Positions 10,453 to 46,489 of a DNA stretch of 64,000 nucleotides are shown one piece after another. This stretch comes from an uncultured Thermoleophilia bacterium (GTDB taxonomy: Bacteria; Actinomycetota; Thermoleophilia; UBA2241). The stretch spans positions 192,001-256,000 of the forward strand of contig CAVPCT010000006.1 in NCBI GenBank assembly GCA_963702475.1, read 5' to 3'. The notes below the pieces were generated by a model. That model saw only the letters and a list, made by a program, of their open reading frames with translations, had not been told where the DNA came from and searched no databases. Within the stretch, counting starts at the first letter, position 1. Each line of letters begins with the position of its first letter. Both the position numbers and the translations under genes were made by a program.

Positions 10453-11028
10453 GTGCATCGTCCCCCGGAGTCGGTGTCCGGCGCCGGTGCATCCGCCCCT
10501 GAGTGCGGACAGCCTCGGGTCCGTCGCCGCGTCCGGGGCACAGGTGATGCCCCGTCCGGTTCGCGGGATTGTACACGTTCCGCGGATGAAGGCAATCGGA
10601 ATTGTCTCTCATGGGACCGAGATCCGAGCCGCGGGGTCCACCGACACGACGCAGGATGAGTGCCGGTGCGAGGACTCGAGACGCAGGCGGGCCGGATCCT
10701 GGACATGGCGGGGGAGCGATCGGCTGTCGGGGCGCCGGACACAAGACGGGGGCCGGCGCCTTTCGCCGTACCCCCGCCACACTCCCTACCGCCGGTGACC
10801 GGCGTCTACATCCACCTGCAGCGGAATCCCGAAGCCGCGACCGGTAGGGTGATCACTTCTACGGGGCGTCGTTCGCGCCCCGGCCCCGTTCTCCTGCACG
10901 GGCCGTCACCACGGCGTTTCTGTCGAAGGGCGGGGCTCCTCTGGACCGCGCTTCTCACGGGTGTCATCCTGCCTTGCGACGGCGCTCCGCGCCGGGCCGC
11001 GTCCCATGGAGGCTGAGGGGGAGTCCAG

Positions 11029-11388
11029 ATGGGCCTCGACACGTACCCGTCGCGATCTGCTCACGAGATCGCGCTCACGCTGGAGGATGAGCTGTCGCTG
11101 GCGGCACTCGACCTGCGCCTGTGCGAGTGGCTCGGCTATGGCGCGTTCCGGGGGAAGGTGTATCTGGACGTCGTCGACCGGGTCGCCGCCGTCTGCCTCA
11201 CCCAGGACTGGATCGCGCCCGAGGAGGTGGCCGAGATGGCGGCCGCGTTCGAGGCGTGCGATGTGGAGGAGGTCGTGCGCGCGTCCGCCCGCGACCACTA
11301 CCCAGTCACGGGCGAGGAGGTCAGGTCTCTGTCGAGGCTGTTCCGCACGTGCGCCGATCTCGGTCTCGGTCTCATCGGCGACTACTGA
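11029..11388 (+). CDS. Hypothetical protein
   Basis: 119-aa acidic ORF with GAGGGGGA RBS and a downstream hairpin. Confidence 0.7.
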   Translation: MGLDTYPSRSAHEIALTLEDELSLAALDLRLCEWLGYGAFRGKVYLDVVDRVAAVCLTQDWIAPEEVAEMAAAFEACDVEEVVRASARDHYPVTGEEVRSLSRLFRTCADLGLGLIGDY

Positions 11389-11399
11389 GCAGGAGCTGA

Positions 11400-11431
11400 G
11401 GGCGGGGAGTGCGACCGCACTCCCCGCCCTT
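11400..11431 (+). terminator. Terminator hairpin between convergent genes
   Basis: gggcggggagtgc-gacc-gcactccccgccc followed by tt. Confidence 0.6.
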
Positions 11432-11534
11432 GCCCGCCGGAGCTCCGACTCACTGGCCGGTGTGCCGGTTCCGCGACGGCTTCGCGGCCGGCGGTCCGCA
11501 GTGGCGCCGCCGGCCGGGTCTCACCTGTTCCGGG

Positions 11535-13401: not shown

Positions 13402-13514
13402 GGCTCCTCCTGGGAGGTTTGGAAGGTTCAGGCGCCGGCGGCGCCGACCGGACGAGACAACGACGGCGCCGGCCTCAGCCGGCGCCGTACGGGGTCAGGT
13501 GGGGAGGTGCGGCG

Positions 13515-13898
13515 TCAACCGTGGATGAGGGCGGGGAGGCACTTGACGCACACCCAGGTGCTCTCGCCCTTGGTGCGGCACGGGAACAGGATGGCGTCCA
13601 TCTCGCTGCGGCCGCAGTTGAAGCAGTGCTGGTTGAGTGCCACGGCGGCCGCGAGCTTGTCGGCGACGTTCTGCGCGGCGGCGTCTTCGTCGAAATCGGG
13701 GGCTTCGCGCTTCTCCACGGTGAGGGCTCCTTCCGGACAGACGGCGAGGCAGAAGCCGGCGCCGTCGCACAGCTCCTCCTTCATCACCGTGGCCTTGCCG
13801 TCGACGATCTCGATGGCGCCTTCGGCGCAGGGGGTGACGCAGTCGCCACACCCGGTGCAGAGGTCTTCGTCGATCTTGATGATGCTGCGGACCGGCAT
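13515..13898 (-). CDS. 2x[4Fe-4S] ferredoxin with C-terminal Cys4 domain
   Basis: MPVRSIIKIDEDLCTGCGDCVTPCAEGAI...CDGAGFCLAVCP; C-terminal CFNC...CVKC. Confidence 0.88.
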   Translation of the reverse strand: MPVRSIIKIDEDLCTGCGDCVTPCAEGAIEIVDGKATVMKEELCDGAGFCLAVCPEGALTVEKREAPDFDEDAAAQNVADKLAAAVALNQHCFNCGRSEMDAILFPCRTKGESTWVCVKCLPALIHG

Positions 13899-21611: not shown

Positions 21612-23321
21612 TCAGGCGCGGCGCGAGGCGCCGTCGCCCCGGCGCCCCAGTGTGCCTCCTTGCGCGAAGGCCGGATCGGCCGGCATGACGATGATGGCCG
21701 CCGGCCCCTCGAGCGGACACTTGTACTCGCAGATCCCGCAGCCGATGCAGCGGTCGGCGAGGACACGGGGCCGCTGCACGTAGTCCTGGCGGCCGTCCGG
21801 CTGAGTCGCCACCCGGCGCTCGTCCAGCACCACGGCCTTGGGCGCCACGGGGCACATCTCCTGGCAGACGATGCAGGGCTTGTCCTGGGCCCACGGCAGG
21901 CAGCGGTCCGTGTCGATGACAGCTACACCGAGCACCTGTTTCCGCTTCGCCTCCAGCGGCAGTCTGGGGATCGCCCCCGATGGACACACGTTGCCGCAGG
22001 CGGTGCACGAGTAGTCGCAGTAGCCCAGGCGGGAGGCCAGCACGGGGGTCCACAGGCCTTCCAGGCCCGCCTCCAGAAGAGCCGGTTGAAGACCGGAGGT
22101 GGGGCAGACCTTCATGCACTCGCTGCAGCGCAGGCAGTGGGAGAGGAATGCGCTCTCGTTCTGCGCGCCCGGCGGGCGGATCAGGCGCGCGCTCGTGGTG
22201 CCGCGCCAGACGCCGGTGCCCAGGAGGGCGACGGCGCCGACGCCGGCCGCCGCGGCCGTGAGGAACTCACGGCGGCCGGGGTCGTACTCCTGCCACGGGG
22301 CGGGCCGGTAGGCGGCGCCCAGCGTCATCGCGTCCTTCTCCGGACAGGCGACGAAGCAGTCGAGGCACAGGGTGCACTCGGAGGTGACGACGGCGGGACG
22401 GGTGGGCGCGGAGGCCGCGGGGCCGTCCGCGGCCGCGCCGGCGGAGCCGGCCTCCGCCGCGGGTCCACGGCCACCCGCCGGCTCGATCGCGTCGAGCCGG
22501 CACGACCGCACGCACGCGCCGCAGTCGGTGCATCCGTGACCCACCAGCGGGCGGAGCACCTGGACCTTGGCCAGGAGGCCGAGCAGCGCCCCGAGCGGGC
22601 ACAGGTAACGGCACCAGAAGCGGTCGGCCAGGGCGTTGAGCAGCACGACGGCGACGAAGAGCAGGAAGAGGGCGACGCCTTGAGCGAAGTGCGGCTGGTA
22701 GAAGGGGAGCACCTTGCCGCGCAGGGCGGACTCGACCCAGTCGACGAGCCCTCCGCCCACGCCCCAGCCGACGAGGGTCCGCTCGACGGAGTCGACCGCG
22801 TACACGAAGGCGGGCAAGAGCGACGTGGTGGCCGTGCGCGTGAGCAGCGAGATCGGGTCGAGGACCATCAGCGTGAGGCCGCCGAAGGTCGCCATCACGG
22901 CGATGACGCCGAGGAGCACGTACTTCGCGCTCTTGAGGCGCGGCGGCAGGCGCGGGCCCAGCCGCCGCGCCGTCTTGAAGCGCGACCACTCGAGGACCGT
23001 GCCGAGGGGGCAGATCCAGCCGCACCACACGCGGCCGAGGACGAGGGCCGCCACGACGGTGACGACGGCAGGCGCCAGGCGTGGCATCCACTCGCGGGCC
23101 GCGAGCATCGTGCCGAAGGCGGCGAGCGGGTCGAAGCGGAAGAAGAGGTCGACCCAGGACGCCGCCTCACGCCGCTGCAACGCCGCGAACAGCAGCGCGA
23201 CGAAGAGGACGAGCGTTACGACCTGCACGGCGCGGCGCGCCCAACGGGCGGCCTTCCAGCCGCCCGTCCGGCGCCGCGCCCCGGCGTCTTCGCCCGTGCG
23301 CGGCGGCGCATCCAGTCTCAT
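21612..23321 (-). CDS. Membrane polyferredoxin (NapH-like plus MauM/NapG-like 4Fe-4S domains)
   Basis: GRVWCGWICPLG, RFWCRYLCPLG, multiple CxxCxxCxxxCP motifs, RPPGA...FLSHCLRCSECMKVCP. Confidence 0.88.
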   Translation of the reverse strand: MRLDAPPRTGEDAGARRRTGGWKAARWARRAVQVVTLVLFVALLFAALQRREAASWVDLFFRFDPLAAFGTMLAAREWMPRLAPAVVTVVAALVLGRVWCGWICPLGTVLEWSRFKTARRLGPRLPPRLKSAKYVLLGVIAVMATFGGLTLMVLDPISLLTRTATTSLLPAFVYAVDSVERTLVGWGVGGGLVDWVESALRGKVLPFYQPHFAQGVALFLLFVAVVLLNALADRFWCRYLCPLGALLGLLAKVQVLRPLVGHGCTDCGACVRSCRLDAIEPAGGRGPAAEAGSAGAAADGPAASAPTRPAVVTSECTLCLDCFVACPEKDAMTLGAAYRPAPWQEYDPGRREFLTAAAAGVGAVALLGTGVWRGTTSARLIRPPGAQNESAFLSHCLRCSECMKVCPTSGLQPALLEAGLEGLWTPVLASRLGYCDYSCTACGNVCPSGAIPRLPLEAKRKQVLGVAVIDTDRCLPWAQDKPCIVCQEMCPVAPKAVVLDERRVATQPDGRQDYVQRPRVLADRCIGCGICEYKCPLEGPAAIIVMPADPAFAQGGTLGRRGDGASRRA

Positions 23322-23383
23322 CCAGGTACCTCCGCGCCGCGCTCAGCCTGCGGCACGATGGTACTCCCGTGCGCCGCGCCGAC

Positions 23384-24979
23384 CTACTTGAAGCTCCAGC
23401 CGCCGACGAGCACGATCAGCGGGACCTCCACCATGGCGTCGCACCACGCCGCCGGCATCTGGACCACCATCGGCAGGAAGATCCGGCCGGTGGCGCGCGG
23501 GATCAGCGGCACATCGGTGTCCTTCTGCACCGTGAGCCTCAGGTCGTCCTGGTTCGCGAAGAAGAAGTCGTGGAAGGCGGTACGGTCGGACGACGTCACG
23601 TCCGGCAGGTAGTCGATGAGCGTGGCGGCTGTGGGGTCGACCGGGATCCAGCCATAGTCCGGCAGGTAGAACTCGGCCCAGAAGTGGCTGGACGGCGTGC
23701 CCGTGAAGACCTGGAAGCCGCCGGGCGTGCGCGCCGGGATGCCCACTGCGCGGCAGAGCGCCGAGAAGTAGATGCTCTGGGCGCCGCAGTCGCCGTACTT
23801 GTGCTCGTGCACGTAGACGGACTCTGCCTCGCCACGCGGGTAGAGGGCCAGGTGCGGCACGTAGCTGTACTTCACCGTCCGCACCACGTAGTCGTAGAGG
23901 AGCTTGGCGGCAAGGAACGGGTTCTTCTCGTCGCCCACGACCCGGTGCGCCGTGCGGCTGATCGAGGGCGTGATGCGCGTGTTCGCGTGCGAGGCCGTGT
24001 ACTGTCGGTACAGGGCACTGCCCGTGTCGTAGCGGCCCACGCGGGCCGGGTCGACCTTGAAGTACTGGGCCGCGTGACTGAAGGAGACGCCGAAGCTGAC
24101 GCCCAGGTCACCGTTGAGTGCCTGCAGCGGGATCCTCATGGCCAGCAGGCCGATGTCCGCGGCGGTGCTGGGTGGGTTGCGGATGAAGGCGGCCGGGGTC
24201 GGGTCGGTGATCCGCACGTCCGTCTGCGGCCCACCCTCGATGGGCAACGGGAACCAGAGGTCGAGATCGCCCTCGGCGGGGAGGTCGCCGCGCGGCGTAC
24301 CGAGGCTCTGTGTGAAGGCGTAGGCCTTGGGCGCGCCGTACTGCTGCCAGGCCGGGGTCGCGGCGCCGACGGCCAGGTAGGGCGTGAGCGTGTGGCAGAT
24401 CTCCCGGTACTTGGCGACCAGCGCGGTCTGGGTCTGGAAGAGTGCGACGTCCCGGAACGCGAGGTTCGTGGGGACTTCCTCGTAGTAGTGCGTGACGCCG
24501 TCCCAGCGCAGCGACTCGGTGCTCGGCAGGTCGAGCCAGGCGGCGCGCTGGGCCGCGGAGGAGTCGGGGTACCGGGTCGCCAGCAGGTCGAGCATCTGGC
24601 TCCTCGTGTAGCGGTAGCACAGACCGATCAGCTCCATGTCCTGCATCGCCACGAGACAGGCACGAGCTCGCCCGCTGTCGCCGTCGGCGAGGTAGAGCTT
24701 GCGGGCGCGGTCGTAGAGCGCGGTGGCCCGCGTGAACAGGTGGGCGCGCCGGAGGGAACGCGCCTGCTCGCGCAGCGCATCGGCGCGGGCGGTGGGGCCG
24801 GCGTGCAGGGCGGCGAGGTCTGCCGCCGGGCTGCGGCCGAGCGCGCCGGCCGGAGCGCCGGTGACCGCCAGCAGCGCCAGGACCGCGAGCAGCGCCGCGG
24901 CCGTCACCAGCGCGAGCCGGCGCGGGTCGACTCGTCGCGCGACGACGACTGCCGGTCGCTCAACCTTGCGGATGCTCAT
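23384..24979 (-). CDS. Secreted transglutaminase-like domain protein
   Basis: Signal/TM segment; GDCGAQSIYFSALCRAVGIPAR, HFWAEFYLPDYGWIPVDPT (Cys-His-Asp triad). Confidence 0.85.
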   Translation of the reverse strand: MSIRKVERPAVVVARRVDPRRLALVTAAALLAVLALLAVTGAPAGALGRSPAADLAALHAGPTARADALREQARSLRRAHLFTRATALYDRARKLYLADGDSGRARACLVAMQDMELIGLCYRYTRSQMLDLLATRYPDSSAAQRAAWLDLPSTESLRWDGVTHYYEEVPTNLAFRDVALFQTQTALVAKYREICHTLTPYLAVGAATPAWQQYGAPKAYAFTQSLGTPRGDLPAEGDLDLWFPLPIEGGPQTDVRITDPTPAAFIRNPPSTAADIGLLAMRIPLQALNGDLGVSFGVSFSHAAQYFKVDPARVGRYDTGSALYRQYTASHANTRITPSISRTAHRVVGDEKNPFLAAKLLYDYVVRTVKYSYVPHLALYPRGEAESVYVHEHKYGDCGAQSIYFSALCRAVGIPARTPGGFQVFTGTPSSHFWAEFYLPDYGWIPVDPTAATLIDYLPDVTSSDRTAFHDFFFANQDDLRLTVQKDTDVPLIPRATGRIFLPMVVQMPAAWCDAMVEVPLIVLVGGWSFK

Positions 24980-25059: not shown

Positions 25060-25089
25060 TTGACGGCCGTGCCGCCGCTCGTCTACCAT
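25060..25089 (+). promoter_or_regulatory. Sigma70-type promoter of riboswitch 1
   Basis: TTGACG (25060-25065), 18 nt spacer, TACCAT (25084-25089). Confidence 0.6.
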
Positions 25090-25094
25090 CCGCG

Positions 25095-25259
25095 GCGCTT
25101 GGAGATGCCCGCGAGGGCCTCGAGGGAAGCCGGTGAGATTCCGGCGCGGACCCGCCGCTGTGACCGGGGACGACGGCTGCACGAAGCCACTGTCAGCTCG
25201 CTGACGGGAAGGCGTAGCCGAAGGACGATCCGGGAGCCAGAAGACCTGTGTCCAAGTGC
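25095..25259 (+). ncRNA. Cobalamin riboswitch 1
   Basis: AGGGAAGCCGGTGAGATTCCGGCGCGGACCCGCCGCTGTGA, GCCACTG, GGGAAGGCG, B12 box GAGCCAGAAGACCTG; P1 gcgcttgga/tccaagtgc. Confidence 0.93.
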
Positions 25260-25324
25260 GCTGTCGACGCTCTGCGTGGTGAACGGAGCGGCGGTGGCGC
25301 GTGCCGTGGCTCCGAAAACGGGGG

Positions 25325-25361
25325 GCCCGGGCCCGACGAAGTGTCGGCCCGGGCTTTTGTT
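25325..25361 (+). terminator. Intrinsic terminator, likely the expression platform of riboswitch 1
   Basis: gcccgggcccgac-gaagt-gtcggcccgggc followed by ttttgtt. Confidence 0.75.
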
Positions 25362-25531
25362 GTTGGTGGAGCGAAAGGCGGTGCGATGAATGCGATCAGG
25401 GTGCCGGCGAGCCCTCACTGTGAGGGCGGATCAGGGGCGTGTGAGCGGCGCCACGGCCTCACAGCGGCCGGACTGCGCGTGCGCGCGCTCACGGCCGCGG
25501 TCTTGCAGTCGTTGCGGGCGGGGACGACGAG

Positions 25532-26659
25532 GTGACGGCCGAGGATCTCGCCGCCAACGGTGTGAGGCCGGCGGTCGGCACGATGCAGGCCGTCCTCGTC
25601 ACGGCGGTCGGAGCGTACTCGGTCGGCGAGCTGCCGGTGCCCTTGCCCGGACCGGGCGAAGTCCTCGTCCGGGTGGGCGTGACCGGCCTCTGCCGCACCG
25701 ACCTCAAGATCATCCGGCATGGGCACCGCGACCTGGTGCTGCCCCGCGTGCCCGGCGAGGAGGTCGTCGGGGAGATCGTGGCGCTGGGGGAGGAGGCGCC
25801 GGCGGCCGCAGGCCCTTCCGGCGCGTCCGCCTCGGAGCGCGCCTTCGCCGTCGGCGATCGCGTGTACGTGTACCCCGGCGTGTGGTGCGGTGAGTGCCCG
25901 AGCTGCCGGCGCGGCGCCGAAAACCTGTGTCGCGCCATGCGCATCATGGGCTTCCACCGCGACGGCGGCTTCGCCGAGTACGTCGCGGTCCCGCTGCAGA
26001 GCCTGATCCCGGTACCTGACGGCCTGCGCGACGAGGAGGCCGTGTTCGCGGAGCCGCTGAGCTGCTGCCTGAACGCCCTCGAGCTGGGACGTGTGGGCGA
26101 CGGCGACGCGCTGGGCATCTGGGGGGCCGGCCCGGCCGGCACGCTCCTCTGCCGGGCCGGCGCCCTGCTCGGGGCCGTCCCGTCCGTCGTCGAGCCCGAT
26201 CGGCGCCGGAGCGACTACGTCGTCGGCGCCCCCGGCACGCCGCCCGCGGCGACGTTCTCGCCCGAGCCGCCGGCCCAGGTCGACGTCGCCATCGTGGCCG
26301 TCGGCGACCCGGCGGCGTACGAGCAGGCTCTCGCCGCTCTGGCGCCTCGCGGCCGGATCGTCGTCTTCTCCGGCCTGCTGCCGGCCGCTGGACGACGCCT
26401 TCCACGTGAGCCTCAACAGCGTGCACTACCACGAGCACACACTGGTCGGCGCCTACGGCTGCTGCTTCCGTCACGGCGAGGACGCGCTCGCCCTGCTCGC
26501 CGGCGGCCGCCTGCGCGTCGGACGATCTCATCAGCCACCGCCTGCCGCTTGCCGACCTGAAGGCCGGCCTCGACGCCGTCGCCGGCCGCGCCGGCATGAA
26601 GGTCCACCTGTACCCGGGCGCCGTGCCCGCCGACCTGCCACCCCGAGGAGACCACATGA
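25532..26659 (+). CDS. Zn-dependent medium-chain dehydrogenase (Tdh/sorbitol DH-like); frameshifts near 26385 and 26520, 3' end uncertain
   Basis: GLCRTDLK, PGEEVVG, CGECPSCRRGAENLC, GGFAEY, EPLSC, GAGPAG, LVGAYGC, ISHRLPL...MKVHLYP. Confidence 0.85.
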
Positions 26660-27792
26660 CCAGCGAGACCGACCTGCGCACCTTCGGGGCCGACGTCCAG
26701 CGGCTCATCGAAGGGCACGACCTCTCCCGCCGTCGCACCTACGAGCTGTTCCGTGACGTGCTGCTGGGCGAACAGCCCGAACTTCAGCAGGGGGCGTTGC
26801 TGGCGGCGCTCGTCGCCAAGGGAGAGACGCCGGAGGAGATCGCCGGCGCGTGGCAGGCTATCGTCGAGTTCGACACGGTGCCGGCAGCCGTTGACGCCTC
26901 CGGCGCTCTCGTCGAGAACTCCGGCACCGGCATGGATACGCTCAAGACGTTCAACGTAAGCTCGGCGGCCGGGGTGATCGCCGCCGCGGCCGGAGCGCGG
27001 GTGGCGCGTCACGGTGCCCGCGCCCTCACCAGCCGCTGCGGGGCCGTGGACATCCTCGAGGCCGTCGGCGTCGACGTGGACTGCGACGGTCCCACTGTGG
27101 AGCGCAGCATCCGTGAGGCCGGCATCGGCATCTTCAACGGCATGAGCCCGGCGGTGCACCCGGGCGGTCTCGGCCGCATCCTCAGCCAGATCCGCTTCGG
27201 CTCGACCCTCAACATCGCCGCCTCGCTGGCGAACCCGGTGCGGCCGACACGCGGCGTGCGCGGGGTCTACAGCGACGCCATGGTCGGACCGGTCGGCGAG
27301 GTGATGCTGGAGATCGGCTACGAGCACGCGCTCGTGGTCCACGGCTTCGGAGAGCGGCGTGAAGGCGGCGGCATGGACGAGCTCTCCGTGCTCGGCCCGA
27401 GCCTGGTCGCGGAGCTGCGCGCCGACGGGCGCCGCGACTCCTTCACCGTCGAGCCGGAGGACCTGGGGATCGAACGGGCGCTGCACGCCGACATAGCGCC
27501 GCTTGAAGATCTGCGGGCCGAGGCCCTCAGGTTCCTGCAGGTGATCGCCGGCCGCGGCGCGCAGGCGTGTCAGGACGCCGCCTGCCTGAACGCCGCCGCG
27601 GTGCTGTACGTCGCGGGCCAAGCCCCCGATTTGGCCGACGGCCTGGCTCTGGCGCGTGAGGCCGCCGGCAGCGGCGCCGCCCTCCGCAAGCTTGAGGAGT
27701 GGGTGGCGGCGCAGGCCGGCGGGGCCGAGCGTCGCGCCGCCGGCGAGGCCCGCCTCGCCGCTCTCCTCGAGGAGGCCGGCCTGGGACTGTGA
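26656..27792 (+). CDS. Anthranilate phosphoribosyltransferase (TrpD)-like protein with divergent motifs
   Basis: GALLAALVAKGETPEEIAG, ENSGTGMDTLKTFNVSS, ARHGARA, DILEAVG, LANP, GMDELS, LNAAAVL; GAGGAG RBS before ATG 26656. Confidence 0.85.
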   Translation: MTSETDLRTFGADVQRLIEGHDLSRRRTYELFRDVLLGEQPELQQGALLAALVAKGETPEEIAGAWQAIVEFDTVPAAVDASGALVENSGTGMDTLKTFNVSSAAGVIAAAAGARVARHGARALTSRCGAVDILEAVGVDVDCDGPTVERSIREAGIGIFNGMSPAVHPGGLGRILSQIRFGSTLNIAASLANPVRPTRGVRGVYSDAMVGPVGEVMLEIGYEHALVVHGFGERREGGGMDELSVLGPSLVAELRADGRRDSFTVEPEDLGIERALHADIAPLEDLRAEALRFLQVIAGRGAQACQDAACLNAAAVLYVAGQAPDLADGLALAREAAGSGAALRKLEEWVAAQAGGAERRAAGEARLAALLEEAGLGL

Positions 27793-27883
27793 GGCGGCCG
27801 GACGAAGGGCCTGCGCAGTCGCGGTGGAGCAGGACGTCGAGCCTGCCGGGGAAATGGAGGTGAGACATTTTCTCAGATTCGGT

Positions 27884-27912
27884 TTGACGGCCCCTTGACG
27901 CGGGGGTAGCCT
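27884..27912 (+). promoter_or_regulatory. Sigma70-type promoter of the cob operon
   Basis: TTGACG (27884-27889), 17 nt spacer, TAGCCT (27907-27912). Confidence 0.65.
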
Positions 27913-27921
27913 TCTTCCGCT

Positions 27922-28068
27922 GTCTCTCGACTGCAGGGAAGCCGGTGCAAGGCCGGCGCTGCCCCGCAACTGTGAGCGCTGACGAAAGCCGCAGAGTGCC
28001 ACTGCCCTCGGGCGGGAAGGCGCGGCCGGTAGGACGAAGCGCGAGCCAGGACATCTGGGCCGGGAGAC
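27922..28068 (+). ncRNA. Cobalamin riboswitch 2
   Basis: AGGGAAGCCGGTGCAAGGCCGGCGCTGCCCCGCAACTGTGA, GCCACTG, GGGAAGGCG, GAGCCAGGACATCTG; P1 gtctctcg/cgggagac. Confidence 0.9.
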
Positions 28069-28100
28069 CATCGCGACGAAGGCCTCGAGGGAGGGCTGCG

Positions 28101-28793
28101 GTGCAACTGATACCACCTCACGGACGTCTCATCCTCGTCACCGGCGGCGCGCGCAGCGGCAAGAGCTCGTACGCCGAGCGGCTCGCGGCGCAGCTGGCCG
28201 AGCCGGGCGACGGCACGGTCACGTACATCGCCACCTCCCAGGCCTACGATGAGGAGATGGAGCAGCGCGTGGCCGCTCATCAGGCGGCCCGGCCAGAAGG
28301 CTGGACGACGGTGGAGTGCTCGCTGCACGTGCCGGCCGCCGTACTCGCGGCCGCAGATGCTGCGGCTGGGGACGGCGCCGGATCGCCCGGCTCCGCCGGC
28401 CCCCCCGTCGTCCTCCTCGACTGCGTCACCCTGTGGGTGACGAACCTGCTCTTCAGCGGCGGCGCCTTCGGCGGCAGCGCGCCGCCTGACGACGGTTACA
28501 ACTGGGACAAGGACCTGCTGCCGCCGGCCGAGGAACGGGCGGCGGCCGAGCGCGTGACGGCCGCCGTCGAGGAGCTGCTCGGCGTCGTCGCTCGCGCCGG
28601 CGTCACCCTCGTCGCCGTGACCAACGAGGTGGGGCTCGGCGTCGTGCCCGAGTATCCCCTCGCCCGCTTGTACCGGGACCAGCTCGGCTGGGCCAATCAG
28701 CGCCTCGCGCGCGCCGCGGACAAGGTGTATCTCCTCGTCTCCGGCTTCCCCCTGGACGTGAAGGCCCTGGCCGTGCCGGACCCCATCCGCTGA
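28101..28793 (+). CDS. cobU: Adenosylcobinamide kinase/adenosylcobinamide-phosphate guanylyltransferase
   Basis: LILVTGGARSGKSSYAE, YIATS, DEEMEQRVAAHQAARP, LLDCVTLWVTN, VTNEVGLGVVP, YRDQLGWANQ. Confidence 0.95.
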   Translation: MQLIPPHGRLILVTGGARSGKSSYAERLAAQLAEPGDGTVTYIATSQAYDEEMEQRVAAHQAARPEGWTTVECSLHVPAAVLAAADAAAGDGAGSPGSAGPPVVLLDCVTLWVTNLLFSGGAFGGSAPPDDGYNWDKDLLPPAEERAAAERVTAAVEELLGVVARAGVTLVAVTNEVGLGVVPEYPLARLYRDQLGWANQRLARAADKVYLLVSGFPLDVKALAVPDPIR

Positions 28794-28819: not shown

Positions 28820-29905
28820 ATGACCGACCTTCTCGACGCCACTCTCGCCGCCATCCAGCCGCTCGACGCCGCCGCGATGCGCGCGGCCGAAGAGCGCCAG
28901 CTGCACCTCACCAAGCCGCCCAAGGCGCTCGGCCGCCTGGAGACCATCTCCATCCAGCTCGCGGGGATCCAGGGCAAGGACCAGCCGCGGATCGAGCACA
29001 AGGCCATCGCCGTGATGGCCGCCGACCACGGCGTGACCGCCGAGGGCGTGAGCGCGTTCCCGGCCGAGGTTACGCCTGCCATGGTCTTCAACATGGCCGC
29101 CGGCGGGGCCGGCATCAACGTCATCGGGCGGCACGTGGGCGCCCGCGTCGTCGTCACCGATGTCGGCGTGAACGCCGACCTCAGCGCCGCGCCGGGCGTT
29201 CGCCAGGAGAAGGTCCGCATGGGCACGGCCAACATGGCGCACGGCCCGGCCATGACCCGCGACGAGGCCGTCCGCGCCATCGAGATCGGCGTCCGCGTGG
29301 TCGAGGACGAATTGAAGAACGGCCTGGACGTGATCGCCACAGGCGAGGTGGGCATCGGCAACACGACCGCCGCATCGGCGGTGATCGCCGCCCTGACCGG
29401 CGAGCCGCCGACCACCGTCACCGGCCGCGGCACCGGCATCACCAAGGACGCGCTGCCGCGCAAGGTCGCGACCATCGAGAAGGCGCTCGTCACCAACAAG
29501 CCCGACCCGTCGGACCCCATCGACGTGCTGGCCAAGGTCGGCGGCCTCGACATCGCCGCGATGACCGGCGTGTTTCTGGGCGGCGCGGCGCATCGCGTCC
29601 CCGTGGTGATGGACGGATTCATCAGCGCGGCCGCCGCGCTCGCCGCCGCGCGCCTTTGCCCCGAGTGCGTCAACTACATCCTGCCAAGCCACGTGAGCAT
29701 CGAGATCGGCCACCAGGTCGTCCTGAACGAGCTGGGACTCACGCCGCTGTTCGACCTCGAGATGCGCCTGGGCGAGGGGACCGGGGCGGCGCTGTCGATG
29801 AGCATCATCGAGGCCGCCGCCCGCATCCTCAGCGAGATGGCGACGTTCGAGAGCGCCGGCGTGGCCGGCGACCCCGCCGAAGCCGACGCCGACCTGACCA
29901 GGTGA
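28820..29905 (+). CDS. cobT: Nicotinate-nucleotide:lower-ligand base phosphoribosyltransferase
   Basis: LTKPPKALGRLE, ADHGV, GEVGIGNTT, GRGTG, VGGLDIAAM, DGFI, MRLGEGTGA. Confidence 0.96.
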   Translation: MTDLLDATLAAIQPLDAAAMRAAEERQLHLTKPPKALGRLETISIQLAGIQGKDQPRIEHKAIAVMAADHGVTAEGVSAFPAEVTPAMVFNMAAGGAGINVIGRHVGARVVVTDVGVNADLSAAPGVRQEKVRMGTANMAHGPAMTRDEAVRAIEIGVRVVEDELKNGLDVIATGEVGIGNTTAASAVIAALTGEPPTTVTGRGTGITKDALPRKVATIEKALVTNKPDPSDPIDVLAKVGGLDIAAMTGVFLGGAAHRVPVVMDGFISAAAALAAARLCPECVNYILPSHVSIEIGHQVVLNELGLTPLFDLEMRLGEGTGAALSMSIIEAAARILSEMATFESAGVAGDPAEADADLTR

Positions 29906-29958: not shown

Positions 29959-30957
29959 GTGAGCGATCGCGGTGACTGGTTCGATGACGCCGGCGCCGGT
30001 CTTGGCGAGGTGTCCGCGGATGCCGAGGGACGCGACGGGCGCCGCCGCGAGACGGAGCGGCCGAAGGCCATGCCTGCGGCCGAGGAGCTCGCGGCGCTGG
30101 CCGCCGCGCGCGAGCAGCGCGGCGCGCCCGACGAGGCGGTCGAGGAGGTCCCCGGCCCGGCGGCATCCGGCGGCCCGGTCCGGCAGCTGACGCTCGCCGT
30201 CACCTTCCTCACCGGCATCCCGCTCAAGGTCGAGGGCGTCGTCTCGCCGCGCGACCTGTGGCGCAGCATGGGCTGGTACCCGCTCGTCGGGCTCGTTATC
30301 GGCGCGGTGGCGTGGGCGGTGTATGCCGGGCTGACCTACGTGCTGCCCGGCCTTGTCGCCGCGATCCTCGTCGTCATCCTGTTGGAGCTGCTCACGCGCG
30401 GCTTGCACATGGACGGCGTGATGGACACCGCCGACGGCATCCTCAGCGGAGCCCCCCGCGAGCGCGCGCTGGTGATCATGAAGGACCACAACGTCGGCGC
30501 GATGGGCGTCGTTGCGGCGGTCCTGCTGCTGCTCCTGAAGGTGGCGGCCCTGGGGGCGCTGGCGCGTCCCGAGGCGGCCGCCCCGCTGCTCGCCGGGTGG
30601 GCGGCCGCGCGCGCCCTGCCGGCGCTCGACGTGTACCTGTGGCCGTACGCGCGTCCCGCCGGCACCGGCGAAGCATTCACACGCGAGCGCAGCCTCGGGC
30701 CCGTGGGGCTGGCGCTCGGGTTCCTGGCGGCCGCCGTGGTCGTGGCCGGGGTCGCCGGTCTGACGCTCGACGCGCTCGGTTCGTGGTACGCCGGCCTGGT
30801 GGCCGCCGCCGCGTCGATGGCCGTCGCGCTGGGCGTCCAGGCGCTTGTGGCGCGTAAGCTGGGCGGCCTCACCGGCGACGTGTACGGCATGGGCATCGAG
30901 CTGGCCGAGGCCACCGCGCTCGTCACCGGCTGCGTCGTCGTGGGGGTGCTGCTGTGA
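29959..30957 (+). CDS. cobS: Adenosylcobinamide-GDP ribazoletransferase (cobamide synthase)
   Basis: FLTGIP, YPLVG, LTRGLHMDGVMDTADG, IMKDHNVGAMG, GGLTGDVYG; long acidic N-terminal extension. Confidence 0.93.
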   Translation: MSDRGDWFDDAGAGLGEVSADAEGRDGRRRETERPKAMPAAEELAALAAAREQRGAPDEAVEEVPGPAASGGPVRQLTLAVTFLTGIPLKVEGVVSPRDLWRSMGWYPLVGLVIGAVAWAVYAGLTYVLPGLVAAILVVILLELLTRGLHMDGVMDTADGILSGAPRERALVIMKDHNVGAMGVVAAVLLLLLKVAALGALARPEAAAPLLAGWAAARALPALDVYLWPYARPAGTGEAFTRERSLGPVGLALGFLAAAVVVAGVAGLTLDALGSWYAGLVAAAASMAVALGVQALVARKLGGLTGDVYGMGIELAEATALVTGCVVVGVLL

Positions 30958-31794
30958 AGCTGTACCTGGTCAGACACGGCCAGTCGACGGGCAACGTCGG
31001 AGAGCAGCTGATGGGGCAGAGCGACCATCCGCTCACGCCGCTCGGCGAGACCCAGGCGGCGGCGGCCGCCCAGCGGCTGGCGCCGTTCGGCCCGATGCCC
31101 GTGTACCACAGCGACCTGCCGCGCGCCGTGGCTACGGCGCGGTCCATCGCCGAGGCCTGGCGCGCGGACGCGGCGGCGCGCCGGGGGCAGCGGCCGGGGC
31201 GGCGCGGCCGGCGAAGCCGCACCGGCTCCTTCCACGCCGCTCCTGTTCTCGGATCCCCGCCTGCGCGAGATCAGCCTCGGCGAGTACGAGGGTGCCTCGT
31301 GGGAGCGGTTCGAGGCCGACGCGGAGCTCATGGCGGCGTTCGAACGGGACCCCTACGGCACGGCCGTGCCCGGCGGTGAGTCTCTCGCGCACCTCGTCGA
31401 CCGCGTCATCGCCGCGGTGCGCGACATCCTCTCCGCGCACGGCGTGACCGACGACCACGCGCTGTCCACCGAGGCCGTGGCCACGTCGGACGCGAGCGCG
31501 CTCGCCACCGGCTTCCACCTGCCGCCGCAGGGTGAGGCCGCCTGCATCGTCGCCCACGACGGGCCCATCCGCGCCATACTGAACCACTACCTCGGGGTGC
31601 CGCCGGAGAAGTGGTGGACCTTGTCCACCACCCACGGCGGCGTCTCTCTGCTCGAGTTCAGTGGCGGCTGGGTCAACGTACGCTACGTGAACGCCGCAGA
31701 ACACCTCGCCGGCCTGGAGCCGGACGTCTACGTGCCCACTATGGACGACCCCGGCGTCGACGCCGGCGGCGACACTGCTCCACGGCCCGGCTGA
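30954..31794 (+). CDS. cobC: Histidine phosphatase, probable alpha-ribazole-5'-phosphate phosphatase; frameshifted near 31190-31250
   Basis: MKLYLVRHGQS, SDLPRAVATA, PRLREISLGEYEG, PGGES, VAHDGPIR; located after cobS. Confidence 0.8.
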
Positions 31795-31805: not shown

Positions 31806-32759
31806 ATGACCGCGAGACCCCTGCACGACGACTGGCGCTTCGCCCTCTGCACCGTCCTTCTGGCCGGCGTCATGGACGTCGCCCTCGGTGAGCCGCCGGC
31901 CCGCGTGCACCCCGTGGTGTGGATGGGCCGGCTGATCGGCGCGCTGGAGCGGCGCCGCCCACAGGACCGACCGGTCGCGGAGCTCGCCTACGGCGTGCTC
32001 ATCGTCGGCGTCACCGCCGGAACGGCTGCCGGCGCCGGCGTCGCCCTCAGCCGCGGCCTGCGCCGGCTGCCCTGGTGGCTCGCCCTGCCGGCCGGCGCCT
32101 ACGCCCTCAAGACGACCTTCTCGCTACGCGGCCTCGTGCGCGCCGGCCGGGACGTGCAGGACGCCCTCGGCGAAGACACTGGTGCGGCCCGGGAGCGGCT
32201 CGCGGCACTGGTCAGCCGCTCGCCCGACCTCGACCCTCCGCTCATCGTCTCCGCCACGGTCGAGTCGCTCGCCGAGAACCTCACCGACAGCGTCGTCTCT
32301 CCGCTGCTCGCGTTCTCGCTCTTCGGACTGCCGGGCGCGCTGGCGTATCGGTCGGTGAACACCATGGACGCCATGCTCGGCTACCGCGACCACCGTGAGT
32401 ACGTCGGCAAGGCGGCGGCCCGCAGCGACGACGCCGCCAACTGGCTCCCCACCCGTCTCACCGGGTTGCTGCTCGTCGGCATCGCGGCGCTCAAAGGGAG
32501 GGCCGGGCGCGCGTGGTGGGCGTTCCGCACGCAGCACCGGCCTGAGCATGGTCCCAACAAGACGCTGGCCATCGCGACCATGGCCGGCGCCCTTGGCGTG
32601 CAGCTGCAGAAGCCGGGGGCCTACGCGCTCGGCGAGGCCGAGCGCCCGCTGACGCCGGCGGTGATCGACGACGCCGCGAAGATGGTGTGGGCGGCCGGCG
32701 GTGTCGCGGTGGCCGCCACTGCGGGGCTCGCCGCACTCGTGCGGGCGGTGACGCGATGA
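31806..32759 (+). CDS. cbiB: Adenosylcobinamide-phosphate synthase
   Basis: GEPPARVHPVVWMG, ATVESLAENLTDSVVSPL, YRSVNTMDAMLGY, DDAANWLPTRL. Confidence 0.93.
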   Translation: MTARPLHDDWRFALCTVLLAGVMDVALGEPPARVHPVVWMGRLIGALERRRPQDRPVAELAYGVLIVGVTAGTAAGAGVALSRGLRRLPWWLALPAGAYALKTTFSLRGLVRAGRDVQDALGEDTGAARERLAALVSRSPDLDPPLIVSATVESLAENLTDSVVSPLLAFSLFGLPGALAYRSVNTMDAMLGYRDHREYVGKAAARSDDAANWLPTRLTGLLLVGIAALKGRAGRAWWAFRTQHRPEHGPNKTLAIATMAGALGVQLQKPGAYALGEAERPLTPAVIDDAAKMVWAAGGVAVAATAGLAALVRAVTR

Positions 32760-33910
32760 ACCGGCCGCTGCCCGAGCTGCTCGCAGTGCCCGGCGCCCCG
32801 GCGCCCGCGTACAGCGCCGGCCTTCTCCGCCGGGTGGCCCGGTCGGCTCACGGTGCGGTCGACCCCACGGCGCTGCGCGCCGAGGGCGTCGACCCGGGAG
32901 CGATCGTCGACTTCAGCTCGAACCAGTCGCCGCTCGGCGCCGCCCCCGGCGTGGCCGCAGCGGTCGCCGGCGCCGTTGTGGACGCCTACCCGGACCCGCA
33001 CGTTGCGGAGCTCGGTGAGCGCCTCGCCTCGCGGCACGGCGTCGACCCCGCGCAGGTGGTCTGCGGCAACGGCAGTACCGAGCTGATCCGGCTGGTCGCC
33101 CAACTGGCGCTCGGCCCGACGGAAACGGCGCTGGCGCTGGCGCCGGTGTTCGGCGAGTGCGAGGTGGCCACGGCGCTCGCCGGCGCGCGTCTGGAGCAGG
33201 TCATGCTGGCGCACGACGCTCCCGGCTCGGGCTTCGCCTGCGACGACCAGGCGCTGCGCTGCGCGCTTGCGCGTCTGCGGCCGCGGCTGTGTTGGCTCTG
33301 CTCGCCGAACAATCCGACCGGAGCGTCGCTGTCCCCCGCCTTGATCGCTGCGCTGGTCGCTGGTCACCCGGAGACCCTGTTCGTCCTCGACGAGGCGTAC
33401 TGCGACCTGCTGGCCGAATCGCAGTGGGAGCGCGCCGCACTGGCCGGCGGCAATCTCGTCGTGCTGCACTCGATGACCAAGTATTGGGGGTTGGCCGGAC
33501 TCCGTCTTGGCTTCGCCGTCGCGGCTCTACAGACGGCCGCGGCGCTGCGCGCCGCGGCACCACCCTGGAGCGTGAACGCCTGCGCCCAGAAGGCCGGCCT
33601 GGCCGCGCTCGCCGACCTCGGTCACCACCGCAGGTCCGTCGAGCTGCTCACCCGCGAGCGCGACCGCCTTGCGGCCGGCCTGCACGCGAGCGGCTGGACG
33701 ACCGAGCCGACGACGGCCGGCTTCTTCCTCGTCTACGCCGGCGACGCGGCAGCGCTTCGCCGCGCCCTGCTCACGCGCGGCTGCCTGGTCCGCGACTGCG
33801 CGTCGTTCGGGCTGCCCGGGCACGTGCGCGTCAGCCCCCGACACCCGGAGCAGAACGACCTGCTGCTGGCCGCGTTCGCCGCGCTCGGGCCGCCGGAGGC
33901 GGCAGCATGA
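32756..33910 (+). CDS. cobD: Threonine-phosphate decarboxylase (PLP class I/II)
   Basis: HG...DFSSNQSPLG, YPDP, GNGSTELI, SPNNPTG, DEAY, SMTKYWGLAGLRLG, LVRDCASFG. Confidence 0.88.
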   Translation: MNRPLPELLAVPGAPAPAYSAGLLRRVARSAHGAVDPTALRAEGVDPGAIVDFSSNQSPLGAAPGVAAAVAGAVVDAYPDPHVAELGERLASRHGVDPAQVVCGNGSTELIRLVAQLALGPTETALALAPVFGECEVATALAGARLEQVMLAHDAPGSGFACDDQALRCALARLRPRLCWLCSPNNPTGASLSPALIAALVAGHPETLFVLDEAYCDLLAESQWERAALAGGNLVVLHSMTKYWGLAGLRLGFAVAALQTAAALRAAAPPWSVNACAQKAGLAALADLGHHRRSVELLTRERDRLAAGLHASGWTTEPTTAGFFLVYAGDAAALRRALLTRGCLVRDCASFGLPGHVRVSPRHPEQNDLLLAAFAALGPPEAAA

Positions 33911-35355: not shown

Positions 35356-35720
35356 GTGCTCTCATCGTGCTCGGTCACGGCAGTCGCAACGCCGCGGCCA
35401 CCGAGCAGTTCCACGTGGTCGTCGAGCAGCTGCGCGTGCGCCGGGACGACCCGGTGTACGCCGCCTTCATGGAGCTCGCCGAGCCCACGCTGGGCGACGC
35501 GGTCGCGGAGGCCGTCGGCGCCGGCGCCGCCGAGGTCGTGGTGCAGCCATGCTTCCTGTTCGACGGCAACCACATCCGCCGCGACGTCCCCGAGCTCCTC
35601 AGCGGGCTCGCCGCCCGGTATCCGGACGTCTCGTTCAGGTTCGGACGTCCCATCGGACCCGATCCGCGTGTCGCCGACATCCTGCTCGAACGTGCCGGGG
35701 AGGCCGCATGTCTGGCCTGA
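35352..35720 (+). CDS. cbiX: Short-form sirohydrochlorin cobaltochelatase (CbiXS type)
   Basis: LGHGSR, AFMELAEP, PCFLFDGNHIRRDVP; 122 aa. Confidence 0.88.
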   Translation: MSALIVLGHGSRNAAATEQFHVVVEQLRVRRDDPVYAAFMELAEPTLGDAVAEAVGAGAAEVVVQPCFLFDGNHIRRDVPELLSGLAARYPDVSFRFGRPIGPDPRVADILLERAGEAACLA

Positions 35721-36331
35721 AGCCGCACGAGATCGAGGTCCGCAGCATGGAGATCATCGACGGCCTCCTGCCCGCGGGCGACTGGGATGCGGGCGAGCGC
35801 ACGGTGGTCAAGCGTCTCGTGCACACGAGCGGCGATCCCTCGCTGGCCGGGGAGGTGCGGTTCTCCGCCGGCGCCGTTGCGGCCGGCGTGGCGGCGCTGC
35901 GCGCGGGCGTGCCCGTGTTCACCGACACCCACATGGTGCGGATGGGCATCAACCGGGACCGCGTCGCCGCGCTGGGCGGGACGGTGGAGTGCCTGATCTC
36001 GGACGAGGCCGTGGCGGCCGAGGCGAAGCGGACCGGCCGCACGCGTGCGGCGACGGCCATGCGCACGCTGGGCGCCCGGCTCGATGGTGCGGTGGTCGCG
36101 CTGGGGAACGCGCCGACCGCGCTGCGCGAGGTGCTGGTGATGGCGACGGAAGGCGTGGCGCGTCCGGCGCTGGTCATCGGCATGCCGGTCGGGTTCGTCG
36201 ACGCGGCCGAGTCCAAGGATGCACTCATCGACTCCGACCTGGCGTTCGTCGCGGTCCACGGCACGCGCGGCGGCAGCCCGCTCGCCGCGGCGACCGTCAA
36301 CGCCCTGCTGCGCGTGCTCGCCGAGGAGTGA
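35708..36331 (+). CDS. cbiC: Cobalt-precorrin-8 methylmutase
   Basis: PHEIEVRSMEII, RLVHTSGD, GNAPTAL, GMPVGFVDAAESK, RGGSPLAAATVNAL. Confidence 0.95.
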   Translation: MSGLKPHEIEVRSMEIIDGLLPAGDWDAGERTVVKRLVHTSGDPSLAGEVRFSAGAVAAGVAALRAGVPVFTDTHMVRMGINRDRVAALGGTVECLISDEAVAAEAKRTGRTRAATAMRTLGARLDGAVVALGNAPTALREVLVMATEGVARPALVIGMPVGFVDAAESKDALIDSDLAFVAVHGTRGGSPLAAATVNALLRVLAEE

Positions 36332-36369
36332 GCGGGACGGACGTGGACGGGACGGCCGGAAGGGAAGCG

Positions 36370-38200
36370 ATGACGACGGAGCGGACACGGGGTCGGGATA
36401 CCGCGGCGGAGGCGGAGCCGCGCAGCGGCCTGACGACGGGCACGTGCGCCGCCGCCGCCACGAAGGCGGCGGCCCTGGCGCTCGCCGGCGCGCCTTGCGC
36501 CGCGGTGGACGTCGAGCTGCCCGGCGGTGACGTCGTGACCCTGGCGGTCGAGTGGACCGAGCGCCCGCGACCCGGCTGCGCCCGCGCGGCCGTCGTGAAG
36601 GACGCGGGCGACGACCCGGACGTGACCGACGGCATGACGGTGGTCGCCGAGGTCGAGGTGCTCGACACGCTTGAGGCGGCCGGGTCCGGCGGCGCCCCGC
36701 CGGCCGAGCCCGACGGCGTGACCTTCGCTGCCGGCCCGGGCGTCGGCACGGTCACCCGGGCCGGGCTGCAGGTGCCGCCCGGCGAGCCGGCCATCAACCC
36801 CGTGCCGCGCCGCATGATCACGGAGGCCGTGCGCCAGGTGTTGCCCGAGGGCGCGCTGCGCGTCACCGTGAGCATCCCCGGCGGCGAGGAGACGGCGCGG
36901 CGCACGTTCAATCCGCGGCTCGGCATCGAAGGCGGGCTGTCGGTGCTGGGTACGTCGGGCCGCGTGATACCGAAGTCGGAGGACGCCTGGCTGCGCTCGC
37001 TGCTGCCCGCAGGTCGACATGGCGCTGGCCGAGGGTCACTCGAAGCTGTACCTTGCGCCCGGCGGCTTCGGTGAGCGCGCCGCGCGCGAGCAGCTGGGCG
37101 CGCCCGAGGCAGCGATCGTGCAGTGCTCCAACTTCGCCGGCGACCTGCTCGACCACTGCGCCGACAGGGGAGTCGAGCAGGTCGTGTTCGTCGGCCACGC
37201 CGGCAAGCTCGTCAAGCTCGCGGCCGGCATCTGGAACACGCACAGCCGGTACGGCGATGCGCGCCTTGAGACGCTCGCCGCGCTGGCGGCCGCCGCAGGC
37301 GCGCCGCCCACGGTCGTGACGAAGCTGCTCGACCTGCCGACCGCCGAGGCGGCGGCGGCGCTGCTCGCCGAGGCCGGTCTGGACGATGTCTGGGACGACG
37401 TGGCGGACCGCGTCGTGTGGCGCGCCGCCGAGCGCGTCGCGAAGCGCGCCGCGGAACTGCCGTGCTGTGATTGTGCCGTGGTGGCGTACGACGGCGAGGT
37501 ACTGGGCCGCTCGGCGGCGCTGCGCGCCGCGCCGGCGTCTGCACCGCCCTCGGGACCGCCCGCAGCCTCACCCGCGTTCGAGCTGACGGTCGTCGGGGTC
37601 GGCCCTGGCGCCGACGAGTGGCTCACGCCTGCCGCGTGGCGTGCGGTGCGCCACGCCGACGTGGTCGTCGGCGGCCACCGCCAGCTCGAGCGGTTCGCCC
37701 CTGCCGGGGCTGAGAGGGTGGTCGTGGGAGCCAGGATGGAGGACGTCGCGGCGGCACTGCGTCGCTGCGCCGGGCGTCGCGTGACCGTGCTGGCCAGCGG
37801 CGACCCCGGCTTCTACGGCATCCCCGTCGCCTTGCGCCGCCTGCTGCCGGACGCTCACGTAGTCACGCTGCCCGGCATCAGCTCGGTGCAGCTGGCGGCA
37901 GCGCGGCTGGGTCGCCCCTGGCACGATGTCTGCTTCGCGAGCGCGCATGGCCTCGAGACCGCCGGCGTGGTCGAGGCCGTGCGGGCCCACCCGCGGGTCT
38001 TCGCCCTGAGCGACGCGGCACACGCGCCGCAGACTCTGGCGGCCGCGCTTGTCGCCGCGGGCATCGCCGCTCTCGTCACGGTGCTGGAGCGACTCGGGGA
38101 GCCCGACGAGCGTCTCACCGCGGGCGACGCGGCCGTCATCGCCGAAGGCGAGTTCGACGGCCTCGCCGTGACCTTCATCGAACGAGAGGAGCAGGCATGA
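36370..38200 (+). CDS. cbiD: CbiD-CbiE fusion (C1-methyltransferase plus C5-methyltransferase); frameshift near 37010
   Basis: GLTTGTCAAAA, KDAGDDPDVT, GPGVGTVT, PAINPVPR, TFNPRLGI, GHAGKLVKLAAGIWNTHS, then in frame VVGVGPG...LASGDPGFYG...PGISSVQLAAARL. Confidence 0.88.
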
Positions 38201-46445: not shown

Positions 46446-46489
46446 CGCACGGGTCCTTCGATCAGCCGCGACTGCCGCGGCTCCGCGGG

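Follow-up and report, generated by a model that had tools for sequence, protein, structure and literature searches.

What does a dehydrogenase joined to a relative of anthranilate phosphoribosyltransferase contribute when the two are placed behind a cobalamin riboswitch, just upstream of the genes that assemble the nucleotide loop of cobamides? The question is raised by a 64,000-nucleotide stretch of DNA (the window; positions 192001-256000 of contig C6) from an uncultured Thermoleophilia bacterium, whose 4.3-Mb genome assembly has 70% G+C, consists of 9 contigs and is 93.8% complete. An earlier note on this DNA had described a promoter-like site, two cobalamin riboswitches, a zinc-dependent gene of the medium-chain dehydrogenase/reductase (MDR) family, a TrpD-like phosphoribosyltransferase gene (TrpDL) and the nucleotide-loop genes, and each of these elements is present (Table 1). 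MDR-TrpDL is a real and conserved feature, it almost certainly belongs to the cobamide regulon, and it is optional within the host genus. From these sequence patterns we propose, with confidence that is about evenly balanced, that MDR-TrpDL is an optional 'make' module that would give CobT, the nicotinate mononucleotide (NaMN):base phosphoribosyltransferase, a lower-ligand base inside the cell.

TrpDL has the two-domain architecture of TrpD (EC 2.4.2.18), with matches to PF02885 (56.7 bits), PF00591 (167.4 bits) and TIGR01245 (243.2 bits; cut-off 199.05), and TrpDs are its best-scoring relatives of solved structure (9ucw, 227 bits). It also keeps the invariant D-E of GMDELS, the acidic pair for Mg2+ and 5-phosphoribosyl pyrophosphate (PRPP), and the phosphate-binding N-x-S-S/T stretch. 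However, it belongs to a distinct clade in which the signature motifs of TrpD are replaced and the acceptor segment is rebuilt; the roles of these motifs in the acceptor site and in Mg2+/PRPP binding are assumed here from the TrpD literature. The host's own TrpD reads GTGGD, KHGN and GPLTNP where the clade of the window TrpDL reads GTGMD, RHGA and ASLANP, and all 18 of the 18 aligned clade members carry GTGMD, (R/K)H(G/A)A and A(A/G)SLA(N/G/S)P. TrpDL is about 33% identical to the host's own TrpD, whereas identity within the clade is 50-60% across phyla; homologues from Thermoleophilia compared with those of Desulfobacterota, Kiritimatiellia and other groups share 57-62%. We read TrpDL as a putative PRPP-dependent transferase with an acceptor other than that of TrpD.

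The separate canonical trpD for which the earlier note had proposed a check was found on contig C3 (391 bits to TIGR01245), adjoining trpG and trpF, so that TrpDL, which sits between two cobalamin riboswitches and beside an MDR partner in a cob context, is not the only trpD of the genome. In a sample of 201 genomes from the phylum of Trichlorobacter, scores against the TrpDL profile were bimodal, at 432 or more in seven genomes and 304.5 for one truncated copy, with canonical TrpD at 247 or below; a canonical TrpD-level match was present in 8/8 carriers of that sample. Source databases label TrpDL anthranilate phosphoribosyltransferase, a name that is probably wrong for the window copy and its clade. 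TrpDL lacks the DBI_PRT domain and is therefore not CobT, of which the window encodes a separate copy, and neither MDR nor TrpDL matches the BluB or BzaA/B/F families.

The MDR partner shares with L-threonine 3-dehydrogenase and polyol dehydrogenases an ADH_N domain, a structural Cys4 zinc site (C-x2-C-x2-C-x7-C), a catalytic Cys (GLCRTD) and Glu, and the GxGxxG motif (GAGPAG). Its best solved relatives are an uncharacterised zinc-dependent dehydrogenase (4ej6, 242 bits) and, next, archaeal L-threonine 3-dehydrogenases (206 bits). Polyol and threonine dehydrogenases likewise gave the best equivalog models, but every one was far under its cut-off, and the MDR is not an L-threonine 3-dehydrogenase at the equivalog level (TIGR00692, 106.1 bits versus 458.35; NF003808, 97 bits versus 380). 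The His of GHE, which we take to be the catalytic-zinc His motif of zinc-dependent MDRs, is absent from the window protein. The family alignment distinguishes a group A, including the window, with (G/A)EE at this position (GEE for GHE) and a shortened Rossmann domain, from a group B that has GHE and comprises copies from archaea, Dehalococcoidales, Aquificota, Peptococcaceae and one actinomycetotal metagenome-assembled genome (MAG).

The MDR gene is not the intact open reading frame (25532-26560) that had been described, because two 1-nucleotide insertions near 26390 and 26520, apparent against five relatives, shift the frame twice. In short-read contigs of relatives (90-99% alike; not the window's own strain), the base at 26388-26393 is missing in 4/4 runs and that at 26520 in two of the four. 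These frame breaks are likely to be assembly indels, since the cobC-like gene further downstream is also frameshifted. When the frames are read through, positions 25583-27792 form a single MDR-TrpDL frame of 735 amino acids, and the two enzymes are probably one fused protein in the host genome; the MDR part probably starts at ATG 25583 and the TrpDL part at ATG 26656.

The pairing itself is widely conserved. A scan for TrpDL with one genome per species confirmed at least 530 of 598 pattern matches, so that TrpDL is encoded in at least 530 species, and the best 80 loci were kept. Bacterial loci among these came from Thermoleophilia, Syntrophobacteraceae, Desulfobacterales, Electrothrix, Smithella, Geobacter/Trichlorobacter, Kiritimatiellia, Victivallales, Dehalococcoidales, Nitrospirota, Calditrichales, Aquificota, Omnitrophota and Peptococcaceae, and there were further loci from Methanomassiliicoccales and Methanothrix. 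A same-strand MDR gene adjoins TrpDL in 78 of the 80 loci, the misses being one contig end and one locus without the gene, and the gene order is reversed in both Aquificota loci. Relatives carry MDR and TrpDL as two genes, often with an ATGA overlap, and an independent MDR-TrpDL fusion of 732 amino acids occurs in another lineage. Three other long TrpDL fusions (with a peptidase C11 or an ABC ATPase) look like merged neighbours and not like true fusions. Unsupervised clustering of all neighbouring open reading frames of the 80 loci gave no conserved partner besides MDR and the cob genes, and a plasmid search with the Trichlorobacter TrpDL gave no match. The genomes searched were mostly MAGs, in which absence from an incomplete assembly is not proof of absence.

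The regulation and the neighbourhood of the pair place it in the cobamide regulon and tie it to the nucleotide-loop, lower-ligand stage, as the window alone had suggested. A cobalamin riboswitch (RF00174 above the gathering score) heads the MDR-TrpDL operon in 39 of the 53 loci scanned, and was found in 13/15 loci picked for having no nearby cob gene. The 14 loci without a riboswitch comprise one archaeon, three cut by a contig end, six lying among cob genes and four with no detectable link (L028, L067, L068 and L070). The retrieved flanks contain cob or btu genes in 34/80 loci, and the gene-neighbourhood check for co-occurrence with cobT identified CobT as the most frequent neighbour (26 loci), ahead of CobU (23), CbiB (23), CobS (20), CobD (17), CobQ (9), BtuF/C (9) and CbiZ (4). 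The link extends to the archaeal CobT, which is non-homologous to the bacterial enzyme (TIGR00303, 313 bits) and is near the pair in two of five archaeal loci, overlapping the MDR start in Methanothrix (L093) and lying 1.6 kb away in the archaeon of L089. Arrangements include cobD-cbiB-MDR-TrpDL-cobT (L086), TrpDL-cobT (L036 and L032) and, in Geobacter/Trichlorobacter, riboswitch-MDR-TrpDL-cbiZ-btuB-btuF-btuC-btuD; many loci of Desulfobacterota type have the pair on its own, at a distance from cob genes. CobT is encoded by 44 of 50 carriers (the misses are four archaea and two MAGs), indicating that the pair does not replace it.

The host genus shows that the pair is optional and that its place can be taken by another cassette. 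In a class-level sample, TrpDL was found in 7/151 genomes, all of them from the window's genus. Among 41 genomes of this genus, CobT is present in 38 and TrpDL in 15, a ThiY-like binding protein is present in 10 genomes that do not overlap with the TrpDL carriers, and 16 genomes have neither. Four non-carrier loci are syntenic with the window (Crp ... cobU-T-S-C-cbiB-cobD). The slot that riboswitch 1, MDR and TrpDL occupy in the window holds a single riboswitch in L108, and in L110 and L111 it holds riboswitch 1 followed by an ABC importer (a BPD_transp_1 permease, an NMT1/THI5-like binding protein and an ATPase) and then by riboswitch 2 and cobU. The binding protein of this importer is closest to the formylaminopyrimidine-binding protein ThiY (PDB 3ix1, 111.8 bits), versus 38 bits for the taurine binder. 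The cassette resembles a ThiXYZ-type (NitT/TauT) importer in all three components but differs in being under a cobalamin riboswitch instead of a thiamine pyrophosphate riboswitch, directly 5' of cobU-cobT. We regard it as a candidate for the import of free lower-ligand bases. In L109, another non-carrier, the slot holds two tandem cobalamin aptamers (10151-10349 and 10583-10764, minus strand), about 230 nucleotides apart, with no gene between them and 5' of cobU, which may be what is left of a lost cassette or may act as a genuine tandem switch.

The lineage also lacks the known lower-ligand synthases. No BluB over the cut-off was found in the host genome (best 63.7 versus 150), in which the ThiC family, to which the Bza enzymes belong, gave no match at all, and both families were absent from the sampled congeners (0/41 each); the absence of bluB and bza remarked on in the window therefore extends to the genome and the genus. 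With no ThiC-family gene, the lineage may rely on salvage of the thiamine pyrimidine or on another route.

We favour an endogenous supply of a base to CobT because the cassette is dispensable, because what it provides can apparently be imported, because it is wanted at low cobamide and because it is linked to both kinds of CobT. A base is preferred over the aminopropanol-phosphate linker or NaMN since the lower ligand is the one optional, exchangeable and scavengeable input, whereas the other two are obligatory. The riboswitch, MDR and TrpDL would thus form a self-contained module of two enzymes, repressed by cobamide and acting on the lower-ligand side of nucleotide-loop assembly, and its product would be an N-heteroaromatic base, or the immediate precursor of one, that is then activated by CobT. 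In the route that we infer, TrpDL, with the PRPP/Mg2+ machinery of TrpD and a rebuilt acceptor pocket, would move the 5-phosphoribosyl group from PRPP to the amino or ring nitrogen of an aromatic amine. The NAD(P)-dependent, threonine/polyol-dehydrogenase-like MDR would then oxidise the beta-hydroxy-amine motif of the labile ribosylamine, and this oxidation would set off a cyclisation or fragmentation that yields the free base. The ATGA overlaps and the two independent fusions fit such a labile intermediate. Precedents are provided by BluB, in which C2 of the base comes from C1' of the ribityl chain, a reaction that the proposed ribosylamine route would mimic, and by the non-enzymatic reaction of dimethylphenylenediamine with ribose 5-phosphate. 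Methanothrix and some Desulfobacterales, putative makers of 5-methylbenzimidazolyl cobamides, serve as a lead only.

If this reading is correct, the pair would serve the same end as BluB, a base for CobT, with no sequence relationship to it; BluB uses O2 and FMNH2, whereas the pair is found in anaerobic organisms and its predicted cosubstrates are PRPP and NAD(P). The radical S-adenosylmethionine (SAM) 5-hydroxybenzimidazole synthases BzaAB and BzaF, which are ThiC homologues, resemble the pair in supplying a lower ligand anaerobically, often by cobT and with cobalamin riboswitches, but belong to families unrelated to MDR and TrpDL.

Several observations weigh against this interpretation. The anticorrelation with bza and bluB that the earlier note had predicted was not seen, as at least two ThiC-family genes occur in 3/8 carriers versus 29/193 non-carriers of the phylum sample. 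Among the 50 carriers, 17 have no ThiC-family gene, 26 have one and 7 have two or more; two of these seven have a bzaAB-like tandem over the cut-off beside cobT, another two of the 50 have a single ThiC-like gene beside cobT, and BluB over the cut-off occurs in one. ThiC copy number is an imperfect proxy for Bza, and some single ThiC-like genes beside cobT may be BzaF. Since some carriers hold Bza-type genes as well, the pair is not simply a replacement for Bza. The mutual exclusion of TrpDL and the importer was counted in related genomes at one locus, and the counts are not independent; the simple hypergeometric probability of zero overlap in 41 genomes (0.005) is an illustration and not a test, because the genomes are related to one another and both cassettes occupy a single locus. 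In L019, from a species outside the 41-genome sample, the importer and the pair lie in a single riboswitch-controlled operon, so that the two could cooperate rather than substitute for each other. The MDR is frameshifted in the window assembly. No pathway to an aromatic-amine precursor was linked to the pair by the clustering of its neighbours, and we found no cobamide or enzyme data for any carrier in the literature. A full-text literature search, with subscription journals and supplementary files outside its reach, found no description of the MDR-TrpDL pair.

Of the other explanations, the one that survives best, though we consider it unlikely, is that the pair liberates or remodels bases, as the earlier note had listed among its options. 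TrpDL would act as a phosphorylase or pyrophosphorylase that frees a base from a common beta-nucleotide or from a fragment released in cobamide remodelling, MDR would remove or alter the sugar, and CobT would rebuild the alpha-ribotide. Co-occurrence with Bza or BluB poses no problem for this scheme, the TrpD fold family is shared with nucleoside and AMP phosphorylases (weak matches), and the pair is co-operonic with cbiZ-btuBFCD in four Geobacter-type loci and with btuFCD in Aquificota (L081). In addition, in a population study of Chlorobium (PMC8620254), the legend to Fig. 4 names trpD and a dehydrogenase as genes of the variable regions of that organism, where cbiZ and btu genes are also found. 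However, the PRPP/Mg motifs TFNVSS and GMDELS are TrpD-like, scores against phosphorylase families are far under cut-off, and cbiZ is absent from 76/80 loci. A dedicated, B12-regulated supply would also be needless for free purine bases, and the dehydrogenase would be left without an obvious role.

That TrpDL supplies the ribosyl donor, converting the nicotinate released by CobT back into NaMN or a different CobT donor, appears quite improbable. Adjacency to CobT is compatible with it, the L086 cob operon includes nadB on its upstream side, and conserved Arg residues of the rebuilt acceptor region could bind a carboxylate. NaMN is needed by all cobamide makers and for NAD, yet the pair is missing from 26/41 congeners while CobT is present in nearly all; moreover, the dehydrogenase has no role in this scheme, and a ThiY-like importer would be no obvious counterpart of the pair.

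A supply of the linker, in which MDR and TrpDL provide (R)-1-amino-2-propanol or its phosphate for CbiB and so replace the L-threonine kinase missing from most genomes, seems more improbable still. It draws on the place of L-threonine 3-dehydrogenases as the next-best solved relatives of the MDR and on the neighbouring cbiB and cobD (23 and 17 of 80 loci). The linker is obligatory, yet the pair is optional among congeners that share the cob operon, and about 41 of 50 carriers retain a decarboxylase of the CobD type (best match at least 240 bits). The MDR is far from the L-threonine 3-dehydrogenase equivalog (106 versus 458), a PRPP transferase would have no role in the synthesis of a phospho-amino alcohol, and the importer's binding protein is much nearer to a pyrimidine binder than to a taurine binder.

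The B12-independent bypass that had been offered as another option, in which the pair takes over from a cobamide-dependent reaction under B12 shortage, in the manner of metE or nrd isozymes, is very improbable. Repression by a riboswitch would fit on its own, as would the loci where the pair lies away from cob genes. Repeated adjacency to cobT/U/S, cbiB, cobD, cbiZ and btu genes across several phyla and archaea argues otherwise, and a phosphoribosyltransferase with a dehydrogenase is not known to be able to bypass any cobamide-dependent reaction. Both the linker and the bypass are disfavoured because congeners without the pair share the cob operon and carriers mostly keep CobD. Finally, an ordinary second anthranilate phosphoribosyltransferase for tryptophan beside an unrelated dehydrogenase, suggested by the TIGR01245 score (243 versus 199) and the database name, is scarcely credible given the canonical trpD in a trp context in the host and in the sampled carriers, the replaced acceptor-site motifs, the cobalamin riboswitch and the MDR partner in 78/80 loci.

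Coordinates of the features are collected in Table 1. A whole-genome scan with RF00174 (150 of 228 candidates scored) found the two aptamers of the window as the sole cobalamin riboswitches of the host. A GC-rich hairpin (25322-25357, followed by TTTTGTTGTT) lies downstream of aptamer 1. The earlier note had listed a terminator, and a hairpin with a U-rich tail does exist; a strict terminator scan called none, this hairpin included. Because it is placed between aptamer 1 and the first open reading frame, we interpret it as part of the riboswitch expression platform, of which it is likely to be the terminator, and not as the end of an operon.

Table 1. Features of the MDR-TrpDL locus in the window, and the importer cassette found in related loci.
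Feature	Position	Strand	Evidence or remark
Sigma-70-like promoter match, TTGACG-18 nt-TACCAT	25060..25089	+	1 site versus 0.1 expected from shuffles; consensus match only
Cobalamin riboswitch aptamer 1	25086..25267	+	RF00174 101.7 bits (gathering 31.5), full model 1-189
GC-rich hairpin and U-rich tail	25322..25367	+	25268-25380 fold -62.2 kcal/mol, z -3.5
Zn-dependent MDR dehydrogenase gene, group A	25583..26655	+	ADH_N 95.8 bits; three frames in the assembly; tail in frame with TrpDL
TrpD-like phosphoribosyltransferase (TrpDL), 378 aa	26656..27792	+	Database protein P0003 100% identical, 378 aa
Cobalamin riboswitch aptamer 2, heads the cobU operon	27873..28076	+	RF00174 88.1 bits
cobU, adenosylcobinamide kinase/guanylyltransferase	28122..28793	+	PF02283 182.9 bits; NF004469 186 bits (cut-off 161); homology start 28122
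cobT, NaMN:base phosphoribosyltransferase	28820..29905	+	PF02277 455.6 bits; TIGR03160 446.8 bits (cut-off 319)
cobS, cobamide-5'-phosphate synthase	30124..30957	+	PF02654 165 bits; TIGR00317 126.7 bits (cut-off 110)
cobC-like gene, frameshifted	30954..31767	+	Named by position, cobS to cbiB; no family scan made
cbiB, adenosylcobinamide-phosphate synthase	31830..32759	+	TIGR00380 208.7 bits (cut-off 165.9)
cobD-type class I/II aminotransferase, threonine-phosphate decarboxylase family	32822..33910	+	PF00155 160 bits; synteny with relatives' CobD matches
NitT/TauT-type ABC importer with ThiY-like binding protein	L110 10240-13760; L111 12900-16130; L019 1892-4910	-; -; +	Cobalamin riboswitch control

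Downstream of cobD, the window continues with an anaerobic-type corrin island (cobQ, cbiD, corrin methylases, cbiG, cbiJ-cobA, cbiA, cysG/hemD and cbiMNQO). The cobC-like protein of relatives (259-263 amino acids) aligns to 30954-31148 in frame 3 and to 31237-31767 in frame 1, and cbiD is apparently broken as well, into 35356-37074 (CbiD model 2-179) and 36968-38200 (model 181-254 and a methylase domain). The split cobC-like gene and the split CbiD suggest indel errors across the contig. CbiM, CbiN and CbiQ domains share one open reading frame of 851 amino acids (46442-48997), which may be a real fusion or an artefact of a GC-rich open frame or of indels. A CobD-CobQ fusion of 863 amino acids, divergent from the pair, is encoded in a Geobacter MAG (L078, 4984-7575, minus strand), and open frames of 867-940 amino acids around CobD matches in several other carriers suggest that this fusion is common.

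On the 5' side of riboswitch 1, a transglutaminase-like gene, a polyferredoxin and a Crp-type regulator lie on the opposite strand, and a 2-oxoacid:ferredoxin oxidoreductase lies on the plus strand. The polyferredoxin-like gene (Fer4_5 and other Fer4 domains) and the transglutaminase-like gene, between Crp and riboswitch 1 (21612-24979, minus strand), also occur in Thermoleophilia carriers (L015 and L017) and were not found in the four non-carrier loci. These two genes go with the pair in Thermoleophilia alone and are missing in other phyla, and were therefore dropped as possible parts of the system. Between the slot and riboswitch 2, some Thermoleophilia (carriers as well as one non-carrier) encode a large BNR-repeat protein that is clostripain-like, of the peptidase C11 family (L016, 11166-13748; L017, about 11150-13586; L023, 1939-4731; L111, 10335-12782, minus strand); the window has no such gene. 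Just 5' of the leader of the pair, two Desulfobacterales loci have a SAM riboswitch on the opposite strand (L070, 4183-4278, minus strand; L072, 8371-8466, minus strand).

Which organisms can use a given cobamide depends on its lower ligand, which thereby shapes the sharing of this cofactor in anaerobic communities, such as those of sediments, digesters, organohalide-respiring consortia and methanogenic systems. To our knowledge, benzimidazole bases are made by two routes only, BluB and Bza, and most predicted cobamide producers have neither; nor do we know of an established origin for the benzimidazole and 5-methylbenzimidazole bases, or of an importer of free bases. Beyond the supply of a base to CobT, we suggest, as a possibility that we hold to be doubtful, that the pair may be a third route to benzimidazole-type or other non-purine lower ligands, independent of O2 and of radical SAM chemistry, one that would draw on an aromatic amine and on PRPP ribose and that is spread over no fewer than 530 anaerobic bacterial and archaeal species, and that the ThiY-like system that replaces it may be the first dedicated importer of free bases. 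The conserved, riboswitch-controlled and CobT-linked pair provides concrete genes for the questions of where these bases originate and how they are imported, and the host genus offers a natural polymorphism in which a base would be made, taken up or neither.

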